Source of the DNA: a virus
Length of the DNA stretch: 24,508 nt
Reading direction: 5' to 3' (one strand)
UHGV virus genome: UHGV-0135138
Shown here: positions 17,298 through 24,471 of the stretch, one piece after another
Layout: the number at the start of each line of letters is the position of its first letter
Numbering within the stretch: the first letter of the stretch is position 1
The notes under the pieces: generated by a model
Told to the model about the DNA's origin: nothing
Databases searched by the model: none
Seen by the model: only the letters and a program-made list of their open reading frames with translations
Position numbers and translations under genes: made by a program

Positions 17298-17314
17298 TCA
17301 AGGATTTTTTGGAC

Positions 17315-20300
17315 ATGGAACAGTTCAAGCAAAAAAAATTACCGCTTCTTATTGGCGGCGCTGGTGGTAAAAAAAGTAGCAAAAGCTCCAGCCGTACTCC
17401 GGTTGAAGCTGACGATACCGTGAATTCTCGTGCAATGGCCGCTATCCTCGATCTTCTTGGGGAAGGGGTAATTGGCGGCTTAGTAAATGGCGCAAGATCT
17501 ATTTTTGTCGACGATTTACCGATTGTAAATGAAGACGGCTCCTCCAATTTTAGCGGAATTACTTGGGATTTTCGCGACGGTTCACAAGACCAGACTCCAA
17601 TGTCCGGCTTTGATTTCGTTGAAACACCCAAATCCGTCAATATTCAATTAAAAAAAACACATTATGTAACGGTTTCAATCGATAACGATGAAGCTGATCG
17701 TGTTCGTGTCATCATGAAGTTTCCTTCTTTGCGAAGCGTAGATAAAAAAACTGGTGACACGAACGGCACGACTGTTGAGTACAAGTTCCAGATAGCGAAT
17801 GGCGACTCAACATTTGTAGATGTGGTTGCAGAAGGTGAAAAAAGCGTTGGCATTAAGCTAACTGCAAAGAAGACAGGTGTTTATTACCGTAGTTATGAAC
17901 TGAAGTTACCTAAGCCTGGGCGCGCGTATAAGGTGCGTGTTGTCCGTATTACCGATGACAACAACAGTCAGTATCTCTATAACGACACATGGGTAGACTC
18001 AATAGGTGAGATTGTTGATACACCGATGAACTACCCAAACTCTGTGCTGGTGGGGTTGAAGGTTAATTCTGAGCAGTTTGGCAACTCTATGCCATCTCGT
18101 TCGTATTTGGTGCGAGGATTAAAAATTCGTGTGCCGTCAAACTACAACGAATCCAGCAACACTTATGTGGGCGTATGGGATGGCACTTTTAAGCTGCTGT
18201 CTTCTTCGAACCCTGCGTGGATTCTCTTTGATTTGCTTACCAATGCTCGATATGGTCTTGGGCAATTCGTGTCGGAATCCATGATTGACCTTGGCCAACT
18301 GTACCAGATTGGTCGATATTGTGACGAAGAGGTCGATGATGGCTTTGGGGGTAAAGAGAAACGCTTTGCAATCAATACGCAGATCACCAGTCGACAGGAC
18401 GCATACCGATTAATTCAGGATATTGCCGGTGCATTCCGCGGCATGGTGTTTTGGGCTGGTGGCATGGTTAACATCATGCAGGATAGCCCATCAGATCCGG
18501 TAATGATGTTTACTAACTCCAACGTCAAAGATGGATTGTTTTCCTATAAAGGTTCTGCACGTAAAGATCGTCCATCAGTTGCGCTCGTGACTTATAACAA
18601 CAAGGAGGACGGTTATAAGCAAAATATCGAGTACGTCGAAGATCAGGAAGCAATGCGCCGTTATGGTGAGCGCAAAACAGAAGTCGTAGCATTTGGCTGT
18701 ACAAGTCGAGGACAGGCTCACCGAGTTGGTTTGTGGCTTTTGTATACCGCCAGAATGGAGTCGGATGTAATTACATTTACTGCCGGTTTAGACGCCTCAT
18801 TTCTGATGCCTGGTGAAACCGTTCTGATTCAGAATAAATATCGCGCGGACAAACGTAACTCCGGTCGAATTATGGAGTTTACCAAAAACAGCATCACTCT
18901 CGATGCGCCTGTGTCGTTAACTAAAAGCGGCAGCTTTATTCGGATACTGAATCAGGAAGGCAAAATCGTTGAACGCGATGTTCTTGAAACTGGCGAAAAC
19001 ATAACAAAGGTTACGTTTTCAAAAGCCCTGACGTCAGCGGAAACGCCTGTTTTGAGCGGTGTCTGGACAATTACAGAACCAGATCTCGAACCTATGCGCG
19101 TTCGCATCGTTAACATCGCGCAGGGGGAAACGCCGGGTAGCTTTGACATCACCGCTGTTGAGAACAATCCGACTAAATATGAGGCGATCGACAATGGTGC
19201 AACGCTTATCCCGCAGAATACGACGGTATTGGACCCGACTTACTCGAAGCCGTCTAATTTGCAAATCACTGAAGGGACTTATCTCTCAAGTCCGGGCAAC
19301 CTGTCAGTAAAATTGACTGCAACATGGGAAGGAAAATCTCCAGAATATTGGATCAGCTGGCGACGTTCAGATGAAAGCAATGTATCGAACTGGCAATCGG
19401 CGCGTGTAACCGAAGAGCAATACGAAATCGTTAATGTTGCGGAGAATGGACGCTACGACTTCCAGCTGTATGCGGTTTCATTCAACGGTAAAAAAACAGA
19501 GATCATCAGCACCGTTTATCAGGTGCAGGGCACAATGACTCCACCTGATTCGCCAACGTCATTAACGGCAGTTGGGGACTATCGAAATGTGATACTGAAT
19601 TGGATTAATCCAGATTCGGTGGACCTTGATCATATTAATGTTTACGCATCCAAGGTTAACAATCTGGATACAGCGAAACTGATCGCAGAGTCTGCAAGCA
19701 CCACCTTTACACATGCTGGTCTTGGGGATAACGAAACGTGGTATTACTGGGTGCGAGCATCGAACAAGCGCGGCATGTTAAGCCCTCCGAACTCAAACTT
19801 GGGTACAGAGGCGACAACTCGCGATGTATTGTCGTTCCTGACTGGCAAAATTACATCTTCCGAGCTTGGTCAGGCCTTGACTGAGGAAATTAGCTCAAAA
19901 GCCTCTCAGGAGGCGGTGAACTCCATCTATGAACAGATTGATGAAAGCCTGAAGAACCTTGATGGCAAGTTTTCAGAGACAGATCGGCGGCTTGAAGAAG
20001 CTCAAAACGATCTTAAAACGGAGGTTTCCAGCACCGTCAGCAAGGTAGAAGACGCTCTTAAAGAGGTTGAAGACTCTAACGCTGCTTTAATTCAGCTACA
20101 GGAGACTGTCTCCGAGCAGGGCAAGGCTGTGGCTGGTGCAGTCGAAGCGGCCCATGCTGCGTTCGAAAATGCTTCTGCATTGATTGCCGAAGAACGTGAG
20201 GCTCGAGTAGAAGGAGATATGGCTAACGCTAAACAGATTGAGACAATGAAATCTTCTGTTGACGATAGTGTTGCGGCAGTTGAAGAGATGAAGAAAACTG

Positions 20301-21475
20301 TGGCCGAAGTCGGGCGAGTCAGTGCTGAAACGACCACTAATATTGAAGCGTTGGCAAAAACTAATATTGATCTCGCATTACGCCAGGATGAAGAACAACA
20401 CAAGCAGTTAATGAATAACGCTAAGATAGCTACCACTCAGAAGACATTTGCTGATGATTTGTCAGCGATGGCGTCGAAAGTGGAAGAGATCCGTGCTGAA
20501 ATTGGTGAAGATATTCGCGCCTCTATCACGGAGGAAACGACAGCTCGGGTTGAGGCTGATAAGGCTATTGCAACCCAAATTGACAAGCTTGAAGCTCAGA
20601 TTAACGACGATATTGCTGCGGCGATTGTGCTTGAACAAGAGGCTCGCGTCACAGCCGACGAATCATTGTCAAAACAAATTACTACATTACAAGCCAAGGT
20701 TGAAGGCGACATCAGTGCGGCGTTGACCGAAGAGCAAATTGCCAGAGCGAGCGCTGATGAATCGTTGGCGCAACAAATCACAACACTAAAGACCCAAACA
20801 GGTGTTGATATCAAGGCGGCTGTTGCGGAAGAAACGAAAGCCAGAACTGATGTTGACTCTGCGCTGGCTGGGCAGATCACTAATTTGCAGGCTCAGACAG
20901 AAAAAGATATCAGCGCCGCAATTACGTCTGAATCTACCGCACGCGCAGAAGCTGATAAAGCACTAAGTGGTCGTATTGATACGATAAGGACTGAAGTAGA
21001 AGGCAACTCAGCAACTATCCAGCAGCAATCCCAAGCCATTGCCGACACCAACAAAAAAATCTCAACGGCGTGGACGTTGAAAATGGAGACTTCAACGAGT
21101 GGGGGGCAGAAGTATATTGCCGGTATTGCGCTTGGTATCGACACAACTGGTCTTTCTCAGTTTTTGGTGCAAGCGGACAGGTTTGGTTTGGTCAACTCTG
21201 TGAACGGGAAGATCACCACACCATTTGTTATCGAAAACAGCGTCGCCTATATGAATGGTGCGTATATCAAGGATGGCACAATCACCAATGCAAAAGTTGG
21301 TGATCTGCAATCTACCGATTTTGTCTCCGGTAGATCTGGATGGCGATTCGGTAAAAATGGAACGCTTGAGATCAACGGTAATAGCGGCGGCAATGGGCGA
21401 TTGGTCATAAATGGTCAGCGGATTGATGTTTATGACGATAACAACGTCCTACGAGTAAGAATTGGCCTTCTGTGA
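17315..21475 (+). CDS. J: central tail fibre / tip attachment protein, lambda J homologue
   Basis: ORF is open from TTG 17309; the ATG at 17315 is preceded by AAGGA. Long colinear similarity to lambda J as recalled (NSVLVGLKVNSEQFG, VPSNYN, IWDGTFK, GQYCD, DGFGG, AFGCTSRGQAHRVGLWL, GKIT.S.LG, KYIAGI.LG, LSQFLV). Followed by three in-frame stops (TGATAGTAG). Confidence 0.9.
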   Translation: MEQFKQKKLPLLIGGAGGKKSSKSSSRTPVEADDTVNSRAMAAILDLLGEGVIGGLVNGARSIFVDDLPIVNEDGSSNFSGITWDFRDGSQDQTPMSGFDFVETPKSVNIQLKKTHYVTVSIDNDEADRVRVIMKFPSLRSVDKKTGDTNGTTVEYKFQIANGDSTFVDVVAEGEKSVGIKLTAKKTGVYYRSYELKLPKPGRAYKVRVVRITDDNNSQYLYNDTWVDSIGEIVDTPMNYPNSVLVGLKVNSEQFGNSMPSRSYLVRGLKIRVPSNYNESSNTYVGVWDGTFKLLSSSNPAWILFDLLTNARYGLGQFVSESMIDLGQLYQIGRYCDEEVDDGFGGKEKRFAINTQITSRQDAYRLIQDIAGAFRGMVFWAGGMVNIMQDSPSDPVMMFTNSNVKDGLFSYKGSARKDRPSVALVTYNNKEDGYKQNIEYVEDQEAMRRYGERKTEVVAFGCTSRGQAHRVGLWLLYTARMESDVITFTAGLDASFLMPGETVLIQNKYRADKRNSGRIMEFTKNSITLDAPVSLTKSGSFIRILNQEGKIVERDVLETGENITKVTFSKALTSAETPVLSGVWTITEPDLEPMRVRIVNIAQGETPGSFDITAVENNPTKYEAIDNGATLIPQNTTVLDPTYSKPSNLQITEGTYLSSPGNLSVKLTATWEGKSPEYWISWRRSDESNVSNWQSARVTEEQYEIVNVAENGRYDFQLYAVSFNGKKTEIISTVYQVQGTMTPPDSPTSLTAVGDYRNVILNWINPDSVDLDHINVYASKVNNLDTAKLIAESASTTFTHAGLGDNETWYYWVRASNKRGMLSPPNSNLGTEATTRDVLSFLTGKITSSELGQALTEEISSKASQEAVNSIYEQIDESLKNLDGKFSETDRRLEEAQNDLKTEVSSTVSKVEDALKEVEDSNAALIQLQETVSEQGKAVAGAVEAAHAAFENASALIAEEREARVEGDMANAKQIETMKSSVDDSVAAVEEMKKTVAEVGRVSAETTTNIEALAKTNIDLALRQDEEQHKQLMNNAKIATTQKTFADDLSAMASKVEEIRAEIGEDIRASITEETTARVEADKAIATQIDKLEAQINDDIAAAIVLEQEARVTADESLSKQITTLQAKVEGDISAALTEEQIARASADESLAQQITTLKTQTGVDIKAAVAEETKARTDVDSALAGQITNLQAQTEKDISAAITSESTARAEADKALSGRIDTIRTEVEGNSATIQQQSQAIADTNKKISTAWTLKMETSTSGGQKYIAGIALGIDTTGLSQFLVQADRFGLVNSVNGKITTPFVIENSVAYMNGAYIKDGTITNAKVGDLQSTDFVSGRSGWRFGKNGTLEINGNSGGNGRLVINGQRIDVYDDNNVLRVRIGLL
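20508..21002 (+). repeat. five tandem 99-bp (33-aa) coding repeats inside J
   Basis: Protein repeats EDIRASITEETTARVEADKAIATQIDKLEAQIN / DDIAAAIVLEQEARVTADESLSKQITTLQAKVE / GDISAALTEEQIARASADESLAQQITTLKTQTG / VDIKAAVAEETKARTDVDSALAGQITNLQAQTE / KDISAAITSESTARAEADKALSGRIDTIRTEVE. More degenerate copies extend upstream to about 20170. Confidence 0.75.
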
Positions 21476-21568: not shown

Positions 21569-24103
21569 ATGTGGTACAGGGAAGGTACTATCACATTTAC
21601 ACAGGGTAGCAATACTCTGGTTGGGGCAGGGACAGCCTGGAACGTAACCGCTAATGGTGTGTTGCCGGGTATGATCGTCGTTGGCCCCGATAATAAACTG
21701 TATGAGATCAAGCGCGTAACCAGTGACACGAATATTGTTCTCTCAGAACCTTATACCGGTGAAACTCAGTCTGAAGTTCCGTGCCGAATCATTACGACCT
21801 ATGAGGGCGACTTAACGCAGTTTAGCGCACGCTTTACTGCACTAATGTCGCGTATGTCGGCTGATTCCAAGTCCATGCGTAGTTGGCTGACTGCCGTGGA
21901 TGAAATCACAATTGAACGTGAAGATGGTACGGAATTAACCATAAAATCCCTTACTCAGATCGTTAATGAGCACAACAAAAACGTAGAGTGGTATAAAAAT
22001 AACACTGATGAAATTGATTCCGCTGGCACCTATGCGCGTGAGGCCGCGAGTAGCGCGACAACTGCTGCGCAAAACGCTGAGCGCGTTGAACAGATCGCGC
22101 AAAATATTGCTAACAGTATAAGTACGGCCCAGCAGGCTGCCACAGATGCTGCAAATAGTGCCGGTGCCGCGAAAACGTCAGAAACGAATGCGGCAGCGTC
22201 ACAACAATCAGCAGCCACTTCTGCATCCACCGCGACCACGAAAGCGTCAGAAGCAGCCTCCTTAGCCAGGGATGCGTCGGCTTCAAAAGAGGCGGCAAAA
22301 TCATCAGAAGCGAACGCGAAAGCGTCGGAAACCAGTGCCGAATCCTCAAAAACGGCAGCCGCATCGTCAGCCAGTTCGGCAGCGTCATCGGCATCGTCTG
22401 CGTCGGCTTCAAAAGATGAAGCGACTAAACAGGCGTCAGCCGCAAAAGATAGTGCTATGACTGCATCCTCGAAAGCAACAGAGGCGACAGGCAGTGCAAC
22501 GGCTGCCTCTCAGAGCAAAACTGCTGCTGAATCCGCTGCGACCCGTGCGGAAGCTGCTGCTGCTCGTGCTGAAGAGATTGCCGGTGCAGTTGCGATGGAA
22601 GACGCAAGCCTTACAACTAAAGGTGTTGTGAAACTTAGCAGTGCGACCAACAGCACTTCAGAGTCACTGGCTGCAACCCCAAAAGCGGTAAAAGCTGCAT
22701 ATGACCTGGCTGACGGGAAATACACTGCGCAGGATGCAACGACAACCCAGAAAGGGATAATCCAGCTAAGTAGCGCCATCAATGACGAATCTGAAACGCT
22801 TGCTGCAACGCCAAAAGCGGTAAAAGTCGCCTATGACAATGCCGAAAACCGCCTGCAGAAAGATCAGAATGGCGCTGATATCCCTGACAAGAACGCATTC
22901 AGGGAAAGTCTTGGGCTGGGGGATGCCGCCACCAAAAATATCGGTACTACAGCCGGCACCGTAGCGGCAGGAAACGACTCCAGACTGGTTAACGCACTGC
23001 AAAAATCCACTTCAGCCCTGGCCGTGGACCTGAATACACTGGGGAGTCTGGAAGTCCAGGGAACTTATTATCAGCCAGCGGATAAAGGGGCAACAGCTGC
23101 GCATCATTACCCGGTGCTCCGGTCCGGGACATTGCAGGTTCTGCCTGGTGTCTGGGGAGGCTGCCAACAGGAATATACGAGCTGGAATCCACCGAGAAAA
23201 TTTGTGAGAACACTGACAGGCTATTTCAAAGGTAATGGCCCGTGGTCGCCGTGGGTGGAGGTGGCGTTTACCGACAGTACAGTGGCTGTTGCGACCGCAG
23301 CGACAAAATTGCAGACGACCAGAAGAGTTGGTGGTGTGGATTTTGACGGGACATCAGATATCAGCCTCCCCGGAGTGGATGCGCCAGGCGATCAGGATAC
23401 GACAGGTAATGCGGCTACTGCGACCAAATTGCAGACGCCAGTGAATATTAACGGTACAGCGTTTGATGGTAGCCACGATATCACGATCCGGGATGAAGGT
23501 GCATTTCAGAAGCCTGCGCTCTTTATACATTCCTCTGTAGATTTGAACACGCTAGGTGGTCCAGGTAGCGAAGGTTTTTATTTTCAGAAATACGGGAGTG
23601 TGGCGACAGTTGATCATCATTACCCAACCAACAGACCAGGCACGCTGACTGTACTGCGTGGTGGATTTGACGGATGCCAGCAGGAATATTTTAGTGTTAA
23701 TCCTCCAAGGAAATTTTTCAGGGCATTAACAGGAGCCTGGAACGGACAGGATGGCCCATGGTCAGACTGGTTTGAGATTCAGACTCTGGGAGGTGGAAGT
23801 GGAGGTACGCAGGTTTTTGGAACCGAATATCAAAATAAATCATCAGAACGCGGTCCGGGTGTTACATACACTAATAGTCGATCGTATCCGATTATGGTGA
23901 TCATTGATGGATACTACGGAGGTGGTGACGGTTTTCATCTTTTTATAAACGATGAAATATTGATATCCCCATCTACATCTTCAGGACAAAATGACGACCA
24001 ATTTCAGTTTACTTTCATCGTTCCGGCAGGCGCAACGTACATGATCTTTGAAAAAACTTTCGGTACGAATTTCCGTATTCACACCTGGTTGGAGTTTTGT
24101 TAA
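21569..24103 (+). CDS. stf: side tail fibre protein (Stf-like), mosaic
   Basis: 844 aa with GGAG RBS. Long Ala/Ser/Thr-rich shaft (AAKTSETNAAASQQSAATSASTATTKASEAA...) that I recall as nearly identical to lambda Stf. Conserved tail-fibre motifs TKGVVKLSSATNSTSESLAATPKAVKAAYDLADGKYTAQDATTTQKGIIQLSSAINDESETLAATPKAVKVAYDNAEN. Distinct N-terminus and a C-terminal region with internal duplications. Confidence 0.9.
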   Translation: MWYREGTITFTQGSNTLVGAGTAWNVTANGVLPGMIVVGPDNKLYEIKRVTSDTNIVLSEPYTGETQSEVPCRIITTYEGDLTQFSARFTALMSRMSADSKSMRSWLTAVDEITIEREDGTELTIKSLTQIVNEHNKNVEWYKNNTDEIDSAGTYAREAASSATTAAQNAERVEQIAQNIANSISTAQQAATDAANSAGAAKTSETNAAASQQSAATSASTATTKASEAASLARDASASKEAAKSSEANAKASETSAESSKTAAASSASSAASSASSASASKDEATKQASAAKDSAMTASSKATEATGSATAASQSKTAAESAATRAEAAAARAEEIAGAVAMEDASLTTKGVVKLSSATNSTSESLAATPKAVKAAYDLADGKYTAQDATTTQKGIIQLSSAINDESETLAATPKAVKVAYDNAENRLQKDQNGADIPDKNAFRESLGLGDAATKNIGTTAGTVAAGNDSRLVNALQKSTSALAVDLNTLGSLEVQGTYYQPADKGATAAHHYPVLRSGTLQVLPGVWGGCQQEYTSWNPPRKFVRTLTGYFKGNGPWSPWVEVAFTDSTVAVATAATKLQTTRRVGGVDFDGTSDISLPGVDAPGDQDTTGNAATATKLQTPVNINGTAFDGSHDITIRDEGAFQKPALFIHSSVDLNTLGGPGSEGFYFQKYGSVATVDHHYPTNRPGTLTVLRGGFDGCQQEYFSVNPPRKFFRALTGAWNGQDGPWSDWFEIQTLGGGSGGTQVFGTEYQNKSSERGPGVTYTNSRSYPIMVIIDGYYGGGDGFHLFINDEILISPSTSSGQNDDQFQFTFIVPAGATYMIFEKTFGTNFRIHTWLEFC

Positions 24104-24105
24104 GA

Positions 24106-24471
24106 ATGAAATATTTTGTCGATGCGAAAGGTACTATTTATGCCTACGAGTCTGACGGTTCGCAGGATGAGTTCATTAAAGAGGGACTGACGCCAGTAAC
24201 GGAAGCGGAGGTGAAAGAACGCCTGAAACCATCAGCAGAATGCTGGCAACGACGAGCGGAGAGCAAGAGAGAGTCGTTGATATCTGAAGCTGGTCGCAAT
24301 TTGTCCGTCAATCAGGTTCGATTGCTTTCGGGGCGTGTGTTATCAGAACGTGAGAGTCAGTCGCTGAATGCCTGGCTGGATTACGTAGACGCACTGGAGG
24401 CGATGACGTTTGCTGCTGTTGTTGATGAGGAAAGCTATCTCAGCATCAAGTGGCCGGAAAAACCCGCGTGA
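24106..24471 (+). CDS. tfa: tail fibre assembly protein (Tfa-like chaperone)
   Basis: ORF is open from TTG 24097; the ATG at 24106 (MKYFVDAKG...) is more plausible, with GGAG 11 nt upstream. Immediately follows the fibre gene. C-terminus LNAWLDYVDALEAMTFAAVVDEESYLSIKWPEKPA resembles the lambda Tfa C-terminus (EAWKKYRVLLNRVD...APDIEWPAVP, recalled). Confidence 0.8.
   Translation: MKYFVDAKGTIYAYESDGSQDEFIKEGLTPVTEAEVKERLKPSAECWQRRAESKRESLISEAGRNLSVNQVRLLSGRVLSERESQSLNAWLDYVDALEAMTFAAVVDEESYLSIKWPEKPA

Follow-up and report, generated by a model that had tools for sequence, protein, structure and literature searches.

Introduction

The fibers of R-pyocins carry two tandem knobs, an arrangement attributed to gene duplication, and phi11 gp45 also has two in tandem (PMC6116203). 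Here, we analyzed a pair of related modules in the side tail fiber gene of UHGV virus genome UHGV-0135138, of which a stretch of 24,508 nucleotides (nt), hereafter called the window, was available; the window carries a phage structural module. An initial annotation had noted that a segment of about 80 amino acids (aa) occurs twice in the distal part of the 844-aa fiber and had suggested that it could be a two-site glycan- or metal-binding unit of the receptor-binding tip. We find that the repeat is real and that it belongs to the Knob family, and we map the domain order of the distal fiber. Judged by sequence profiles and a predicted structure, the repeated module of about 85 residues is the "knob" domain already described from the tail fibers of phages and pyocins, an ordinary feature of such proteins. 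The domain identity and architecture described below, read as primarily structural with a possible accessory role in binding, are very probable.

Results

The distal fiber contains two diverged copies of one module

Both peptides quoted in the initial annotation are present in the 844-aa open reading frame (ORF). In frame, they correspond to aa 487 to 565 (nt 23027 to 23263) for copy 1 and aa 658 to 737 (nt 23540 to 23779) for copy 2; the module had been put in the right places, with coordinates off by 1 to 7 nt and a start, 23026, lying one base out of frame. When the two regions were compared by BLASTP, 47 of 82 positions were identical (57%; one gap; E=1e-30). Self-alignment against shuffled controls, a check set beforehand, gave a local score of 235, compared to 28 ± 5 for 1,000 shuffles (maximum, 62; z=39), which bears out an internal duplication of about 80 aa. 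The short doubled motif reported between the copies was also recovered, with ATKLQT at aa 578 and 618 (13 of 26 residues identical, E=9e-8). The knob hidden Markov model, run with --max, found only these two copies, which ruled out a further, diverged knob in the last 100 aa of the protein.

The DNA of the copies, aligned by codon, is 61% identical, and only 20 of the 46 identical residues are encoded by the same codon; the copies are therefore old. Because this DNA-level divergence is too high, the module was not detected by Tandem Repeats Finder. Moreover, copy 1 is 64 to 67% identical to the knobs of a common Escherichia coli P2-type fiber group (P0008 to P0010) versus 57% to copy 2, and copy 2 resembles copy 1 no more than it resembles the P0008 to P0010 knobs. 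Together with the 61% nucleotide identity, this pattern points to an old duplication or a recombination between fibers rather than to a recent event in place. An alternative would be that a single knob-plus-repeat unit was recently duplicated in tandem, thereby lengthening this fiber. The window does hold two repeats and two knobs, and the metagenomic protein P0084, which has exactly the order repeat-knob-repeat-knob followed by a C-terminal domain of the window's kind, contains repeat-plus-knob units duplicated almost exactly. Nonetheless, the greater similarity of copy 1 to knobs of other proteins, the mostly differing codons at identical residues, the absence of a Tandem Repeats Finder call at the module, and an order of knob-repeat-repeat-knob, not two successive repeat-knob units, make a recent duplication improbable.

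The module is a pyocin-type Knob domain

Neither copy matched a model in Pfam (E up to 10) or NCBIfam (E up to 1). A homologue search with aa 477 to 754 returned 212 proteins, many of which are named "pyocin knob domain-containing protein" or tail fiber protein, from Escherichia, Enterobacter, Serratia, Citrobacter, Hafnia, Morganella, and other hosts. We take the "pyocin knob" name in NCBI records to come from CDD ('pyocin_knob'). All 120 homologues listed are shorter than 490 aa, though the query protein has 844 aa; this word-indexed search seems to under-sample long fibers, and counts of knobs per protein appear skewed toward single-knob proteins.

A 34-sequence alignment of the module (A1), which includes diverged copies of the Stf/T-even type, was used as a profile against PDB sequences. 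Above noise, only the R2 and R1 pyocin fibers were matched (6CT8 and 6CU2, E=9.7e-5; 6CL6, E=1.6e-4; 6CL5, E=7e-3), and the alignment fell on pyocin Knob2 at about residues 460 to 525. A single-sequence phmmer search of aa 447 to 844 against PDB gave no meaningful match. At chain index 172 (inferred numbering), R2 has His and R1 has Ile, in agreement with the His491/Ile491 difference that lines the Knob2 axial cavity of the R2 and R1 pyocins (Buth et al., PMC6116203); the register of the Knob2 alignment is therefore validated.

The AlphaFold2 model of copy 1, built on A1, had a mean pLDDT of 89.4 and six beta-strands, and the proteins listed with it were the phi812 receptor-binding proteins, Pa193 gp47, phage K gp144, and the Mu fiber. 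As in the Knob fold, about 85 residues form a five- to six-stranded antiparallel beta-sheet with long connecting loops, one of which has a short helix. The context also agrees, as the module lies in a receptor-binding fiber that has PF03406 repeats and is encoded between a gpJ-like gene and a tail fiber assembly chaperone (Tfa) gene. Thus, the pyocin profile match and the predicted fold place the module in the Knob domain family. From homology and the tail fiber context, with structure prediction made for the monomer, we infer that the knobs would form trimers.

Conserved residues fit the fold of the module

Across A1, D487, L488, G498, A508, G520, L522, Q534, R547, and W559 are invariant, and Y514, P515, Y536, and W562 are nearly so; most of these positions are matched in pyocin Knob2 (N-Y-P, A-G-L-L, Q-x-Y, R, and W..W). 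Because pyocin Knob2 shares them, the residues under deep conservation (D-L, G, A, Y-P, G-x-L, Q-x-Y, R, and W...W) are best read as fold-determining positions and not as a ligand site. The segments DLNTLG, Y.Q, HYP, GTL.V, CQQEY, RKF.R, and GPW..W would mainly be strands and core-packing residues of the knob fold. Conservation is higher in strands (mean entropy, 1.22 bits) than in loops (1.49 bits), and the most variable knob positions fall in loops (aa 493 to 496, 503 to 504, 517 to 518, 540 to 541, 552, and 560 to 561). NPPRKF is confined to a small clade, with xxGRKF in most members.

The initial annotation had also raised a metal-binding unit built on conserved His and Cys. Such a site, for example with three Cys or His on the threefold axis like the iron sites of T4 gp37 and the pyocin shaft, would be in keeping with the retention of Cys532 (and its copy 2 equivalent) in 31 of 34 subfamily members and of the second His in 28 of 34, and axial metal ions are frequent in fibers (PMC6116203). 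However, the column of the first His, H512, is variable (N in 12, H in 10, K in 5, and others among the 34), the column of the second, H513, has N in the remaining 6, and the Cys gives way to G, R, or S in the diverged Stf/T-even copies and to a hydrophobic (Ile/Tyr-type) residue in pyocin Knob2. We found no HxH motif with invariant His of the T4 gp37 or pyocin shaft type in the module; its motif is HH-Y-P, which falls in the alignment on an outer loop of R2 Knob2 (S471-R486, 16 residues), away from the threefold axis. In addition, pyocin iron sits in the Shaft, not in the knobs (PMC6116203). These observations argue against metal binding by the His/Cys residues, which we hold to be highly improbable.

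Possible binding by the knobs

Contrary to the suggestion that the module is the receptor-binding tip, a 100-aa beta-sandwich follows knob 2, and in RB14 gp37 the module lies about 680 residues from the tip. Ligand binding by knobs has precedents. K1F endosialidase's knob-like beta-prism binds sialic acid, and ethylene glycol binds R2 Knob2, which is the most diverse surface among R-pyocins and has been proposed as a second binding site (PMC6116203). In Pseudomonas syringae tailocins, low identity is concentrated in the distal knobs, for which sugar contacts have been proposed (PMC12208367). By extension, both knobs could be receptor-binding domains that offer two sets of three sugar pockets along the fiber and, together with the tip, bind lipopolysaccharide (LPS) or capsule and orient the fiber. 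The module loops do vary across the family, and knob 2 stands directly ahead of the tip. On the other hand, a module that is 50 to 67% identical occurs in fibers with unrelated tips, which is unexpected for a specificity determinant; in RB14 gp37, the knobs are close to the joint with gp36 and distant from the tip that binds gp38; and the motifs stressed by the initial annotation are the conserved ones, not the variable ones. A receptor-binding role for both knobs is therefore doubtful, albeit with some evidence in its favor. A speculative variant, to which we give little credence, is that a ligand or ion site peculiar to this enterobacterial knob subfamily is built from the near-invariant Cys-Gln-Gln-Glu-Tyr strand together with the His-Tyr-Pro loop and that knobs and tip act as a three-point reader of LPS or capsule that sets the fiber angle. 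If true, this would extend the R-pyocin two-site orientation model to a siphovirus side fiber. Altogether, a two-site glycan- or metal-binding function for the module is weakly supported.

Domain order of the distal fiber

The features mapped in the fiber gene and its 3' neighbor are collected in Table 1.

Table 1. Coordinates in the window of the side tail fiber gene, its parts, and the adjoining chaperone gene
Feature	Position (nt)	Strand	Evidence
Side tail fiber gene, 844 aa + stop	21569..24103	+	ORF, PF03406 repeats, PHROG matches, gpJ-like/Tfa neighbors
Proximal fiber part (aa 1-379): N-terminal attachment region + Ala/Ser-rich rod	21569..22705	+	Common to SSU5-like phage-plasmids, megablast
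Two PF03406 phage tail fiber repeat units (aa 347-431)	22607..22861	+	Pfam E=4e-34, two stretches; ATPKAVK at aa 369, 413
Knob domain copy 1 (aa 482-568)	23012..23272	+	Profile boundaries
Fibrous shaft repeat 1 (aa 570-612, ATKLQT...FDGTSDI)	23276..23404	+	Repeat pair E=9e-8
Fibrous shaft repeat 2 (aa 613-647, GNAATATKLQT...FDGSHDI)	23405..23509	+	Also in RB14 gp37, P0084, P0014
Knob domain copy 2 (aa 654-739)	23528..23785	+	Profile match 112.8 bits; 57% identical to copy 1
Gly-rich linker LGGGSGG (aa 740-746)	23786..23806	+	Sequence; low pLDDT at start of C-terminal model
C-terminal beta-sandwich domain (aa 745-844), likely receptor-binding tip	23801..24100	+	
Tail fiber assembly chaperone (Tfa) gene	24106..24471	+	PF02413 Caudo_TAP E=5e-10; PHROG tail fiber assembly families; gene call at 24106

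The inter-knob repeats belong to a widespread fibrous repeat with the consensus NAAxATKLxTARxINGVxFDGSxNI (alignment A3), and the ATKLQT repeat also stands ahead of knobs in the three proteins named for repeat 2 in Table 1. This ATKLQT...FDGSxxI repeat has no Pfam or NCBIfam model, and Pfam/NCBIfam scans of the inter-knob linker and the C-terminal domain yielded nothing significant. The A3 profile matched the C-terminal trimeric stalk of phage L Dec at residues 96 to 133 (6E3C, E=1.4e-3); its match to the Pseudomonas phage fiber gp47 (8VBX, E=0.08) is not significant by itself. A phmmer search of the linker against PDB gave only chance dehydrogenase matches.

The C-terminal domain is modeled as an all-beta sandwich (pLDDT, 84.6) that resembles the predicted C-termini of many phage tail fibers, from Edwardsiella, Achromobacter, and Acinetobacter phages (Foldseek against BFVD; E down to 9e-8, TM 0.75). 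Its relatives are remote: the 113 representatives among 1.84 billion have foreign E values no better than 7e-12 and identities no higher than 52%. Of 121 matched segments, 100 are at the protein C-terminus. The family consensus reads GxGQxWQNVTxSRxxGVTYTNxTGxPIxV...FIVPxGxTY...WxELx. Members nearly always end fiber-like proteins, sometimes in 3 to 7 tandem copies (P0122, P0123, P0185, and P0198). The domain profile had no significant match among PDB sequences and has no curated model; a Pfam hint of BclA_C in one remote relative was below threshold and was set aside. A search of genome contigs with aa 477 to 844 gave 31 pattern matches, none of which was confirmed. Given the adjoining Tfa gene, the C-terminal domain, rather than the knobs, is most likely the primary receptor-binding tip.

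Genomic context and mosaic build of the fiber

Several PHROG families annotated as tail fiber protein are among the best matches of the fiber ORF. Upstream lies a gene for a 1,388-aa gpJ-like tip protein (ORF 17309 to 21475; PF24801, PF13550, and PF09327), and the Tfa gene begins 3 nt past the fiber stop codon. As for lambda Stf, the fiber gene is thus directly 3' of a gpJ-like gene and is followed by a PF02413 chaperone gene. The gpJ-like, fiber, Tfa order was confirmed on two metagenome contigs: ENA ERZ1749178 NODE_636, which is the window itself (24.5 kb), and a contig of ERZ28620746 that carries the same fiber.

Together, gpJ and the first 379 fiber codons share 79 to 91% DNA identity with SSU5-like phages and phage-plasmids (SSU5, Cyrano, CMS-2020a, and many Escherichia, Enterobacter, and Yersinia plasmids of 100 to 120 kb). 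By megablast, the fiber matches to SSU5-like phages and plasmids (86 to 91%) end at about nt 22705 (aa ~380), and only the proximal 1,137 nt of the fiber gene was matched in the phage and plasmid collections. When the distal half was searched against complete E. coli genomes, only its first ~190 nt, in the PF03406 region, was matched; past this point, no DNA similarity was found in the collections of phages, plasmids, or complete E. coli genomes. This loss of similarity, together with a distal half that has no DNA match, indicates that the fiber is a mosaic whose proximal part is conserved and whose distal part has been exchanged. The recombination breakpoint at about 22705 lies inside or just ahead of the PF03406 repeats, which are shared, at 95%, with lambdoid side tail fibers (mEp460, 2H10, and PhiR29) and probably serve as a linker for recombination.

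Two other regions were also noted. About a quarter of the fiber (window 22020 to 22600, aa ~150 to 345) is a low-complexity segment rich in Ala, Ser, Thr, Glu, and Lys (SAESSKTAAASSASSAASSASSASAS...). It contains weak tandem repeats of 12 and 21 nt and is presumably a rod formed by an alpha-helical coiled coil. The gpJ-like protein has a long Ala/Glu-rich helical insertion (aa ~830 to 1240) with about five 33-residue repeats (E-x-x-x-A-R-x-x-A-D-x-x-L-x-x-Q-I...; window 20531 to 21030, aa ~1075 to 1240). These repeats stand immediately ahead of the PF09327 tip domain and suggest that the central fiber is extended by a coiled coil.

Knobs in other fibers

The shorter relatives are mostly single-knob proteins, 50 to 67% identical to the window copies, and they differ widely in their N- and C-terminal domains (PF12571, PF07484, PF21882, PF21446, and PF13884). 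Paired knobs recur as well: two knobs lie side by side in P0109, a protein of an E. coli prophage, and RB14 gp37 (982 aa) has one GNAATATKLQT...FDGS repeat followed by knobs at aa 122 to 208 and 213 to 301 and a weak third. Given this recurrence and the published precedents, two knobs in one fiber are not unusual. By tblastn, the module was found in Goslar (five places), T1-like phages, and many T-even phages, and knob 2 matched the gp37 N-terminal knob region of T-even phages at 37 to 39% identity over repeat 2 and knob 2. The presence of the knob in such varied fibers and phages indicates that it is a portable module of the shaft, passed between phages of very different kinds.

Discussion

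Our data suggest the following architecture. The two copies are best explained as pyocin-type Knob domains in the distal shaft of a homotrimeric side tail fiber, belonging to an SSU5-like siphophage or phage-plasmid. By homology with the R1/R2 pyocin structures (PMC6116203), each chain would contribute a five- to six-stranded antiparallel beta-sheet; the three sheets would pack around the fiber axis with the loops wrapped outside, forming a globular node with inter- and intrachain hydrophobic cores. Between the knobs, the two ATKLQT...FDG repeats would form a thin shaft. Knob 2 would lead through a Gly linker into a small beta-sandwich tip, which probably depends on the Tfa chaperone encoded downstream in order to fold. 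By analogy with the pyocin structures (PMC6116203), the knobs may mainly serve as nodes that probably help the three chains to align and fold in register and that stiffen a modular, recombining fiber. Primary receptor binding would be a function of the C-terminal domain, and the variable outer loops of the knobs may add accessory, low-affinity sugar contacts.

No new mechanism is revealed by the knob pair; the gain is one of annotation. A previously unannotated stretch of 260 residues can be read as Knob, two fibrous repeats, and Knob, followed by a beta-sandwich tip and a chaperone gene. For the prediction or engineering of host range, aa 745 to 844 with Tfa would be the first targets and the knob loops the second. 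Furthermore, a widespread knob subfamily and the ATKLQT repeat are without a Pfam or NCBIfam model, and the A1 and A3 alignments could seed new ones. The locus also adds a further example of the shuffling of knob and shaft units among siphovirus, myovirus, T-even, and jumbo-phage fibers.

The plan of the window fiber (knob, shaft, knob, beta-sandwich foot, and chaperone gene) parallels that of the R1/R2 pyocin fiber (PA0620; 6CL5, 6CL6, 6CU2, and 6CT8; PMC6116203), except that its shaft is placed between the knobs and not after them. Knob1 and Knob2 of the pyocin follow one another through a single helix-plus-turn and share only 20% identity, whereas the window knobs are 57% identical and lie about 85 residues apart with two fibrous repeats between them. 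Between Knob2 and foot, the pyocin fiber holds a shaft of 70 residues with iron, where the window has the Gly linker only, and sequence identity between the window knob and the pyocin is about 20%. The N-terminal region of T-even gp37 (RB14/T6 type) and the lambdoid Stf-type protein P0109 resemble the window in having the GNAATATKLQT...FDGS repeat and then tandem knobs. Unlike in the window, the knobs of RB14/T6-type gp37 are directly adjacent and at the proximal end of a 982-aa fiber; the T-even/Stf-type copies are without the Cys, and their HHYP equivalent is (E/A/R)(K/R/N)(N/K)(F/Y)P. By description, the type 1 tailocin fibers of P. syringae (PMC12208367) are alike in having internal shaft and knob repeats with clear amino acid homology inside one fiber, and whole knobs have been gained or lost between relatives; they differ in belonging to a myovirus-type tailocin and in having three shaft-knob-knob repeats with two knobs each. 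Phage L Dec (6E3C) is a capsid decoration protein and has only the short trimeric fibrous repeat in common with the window.
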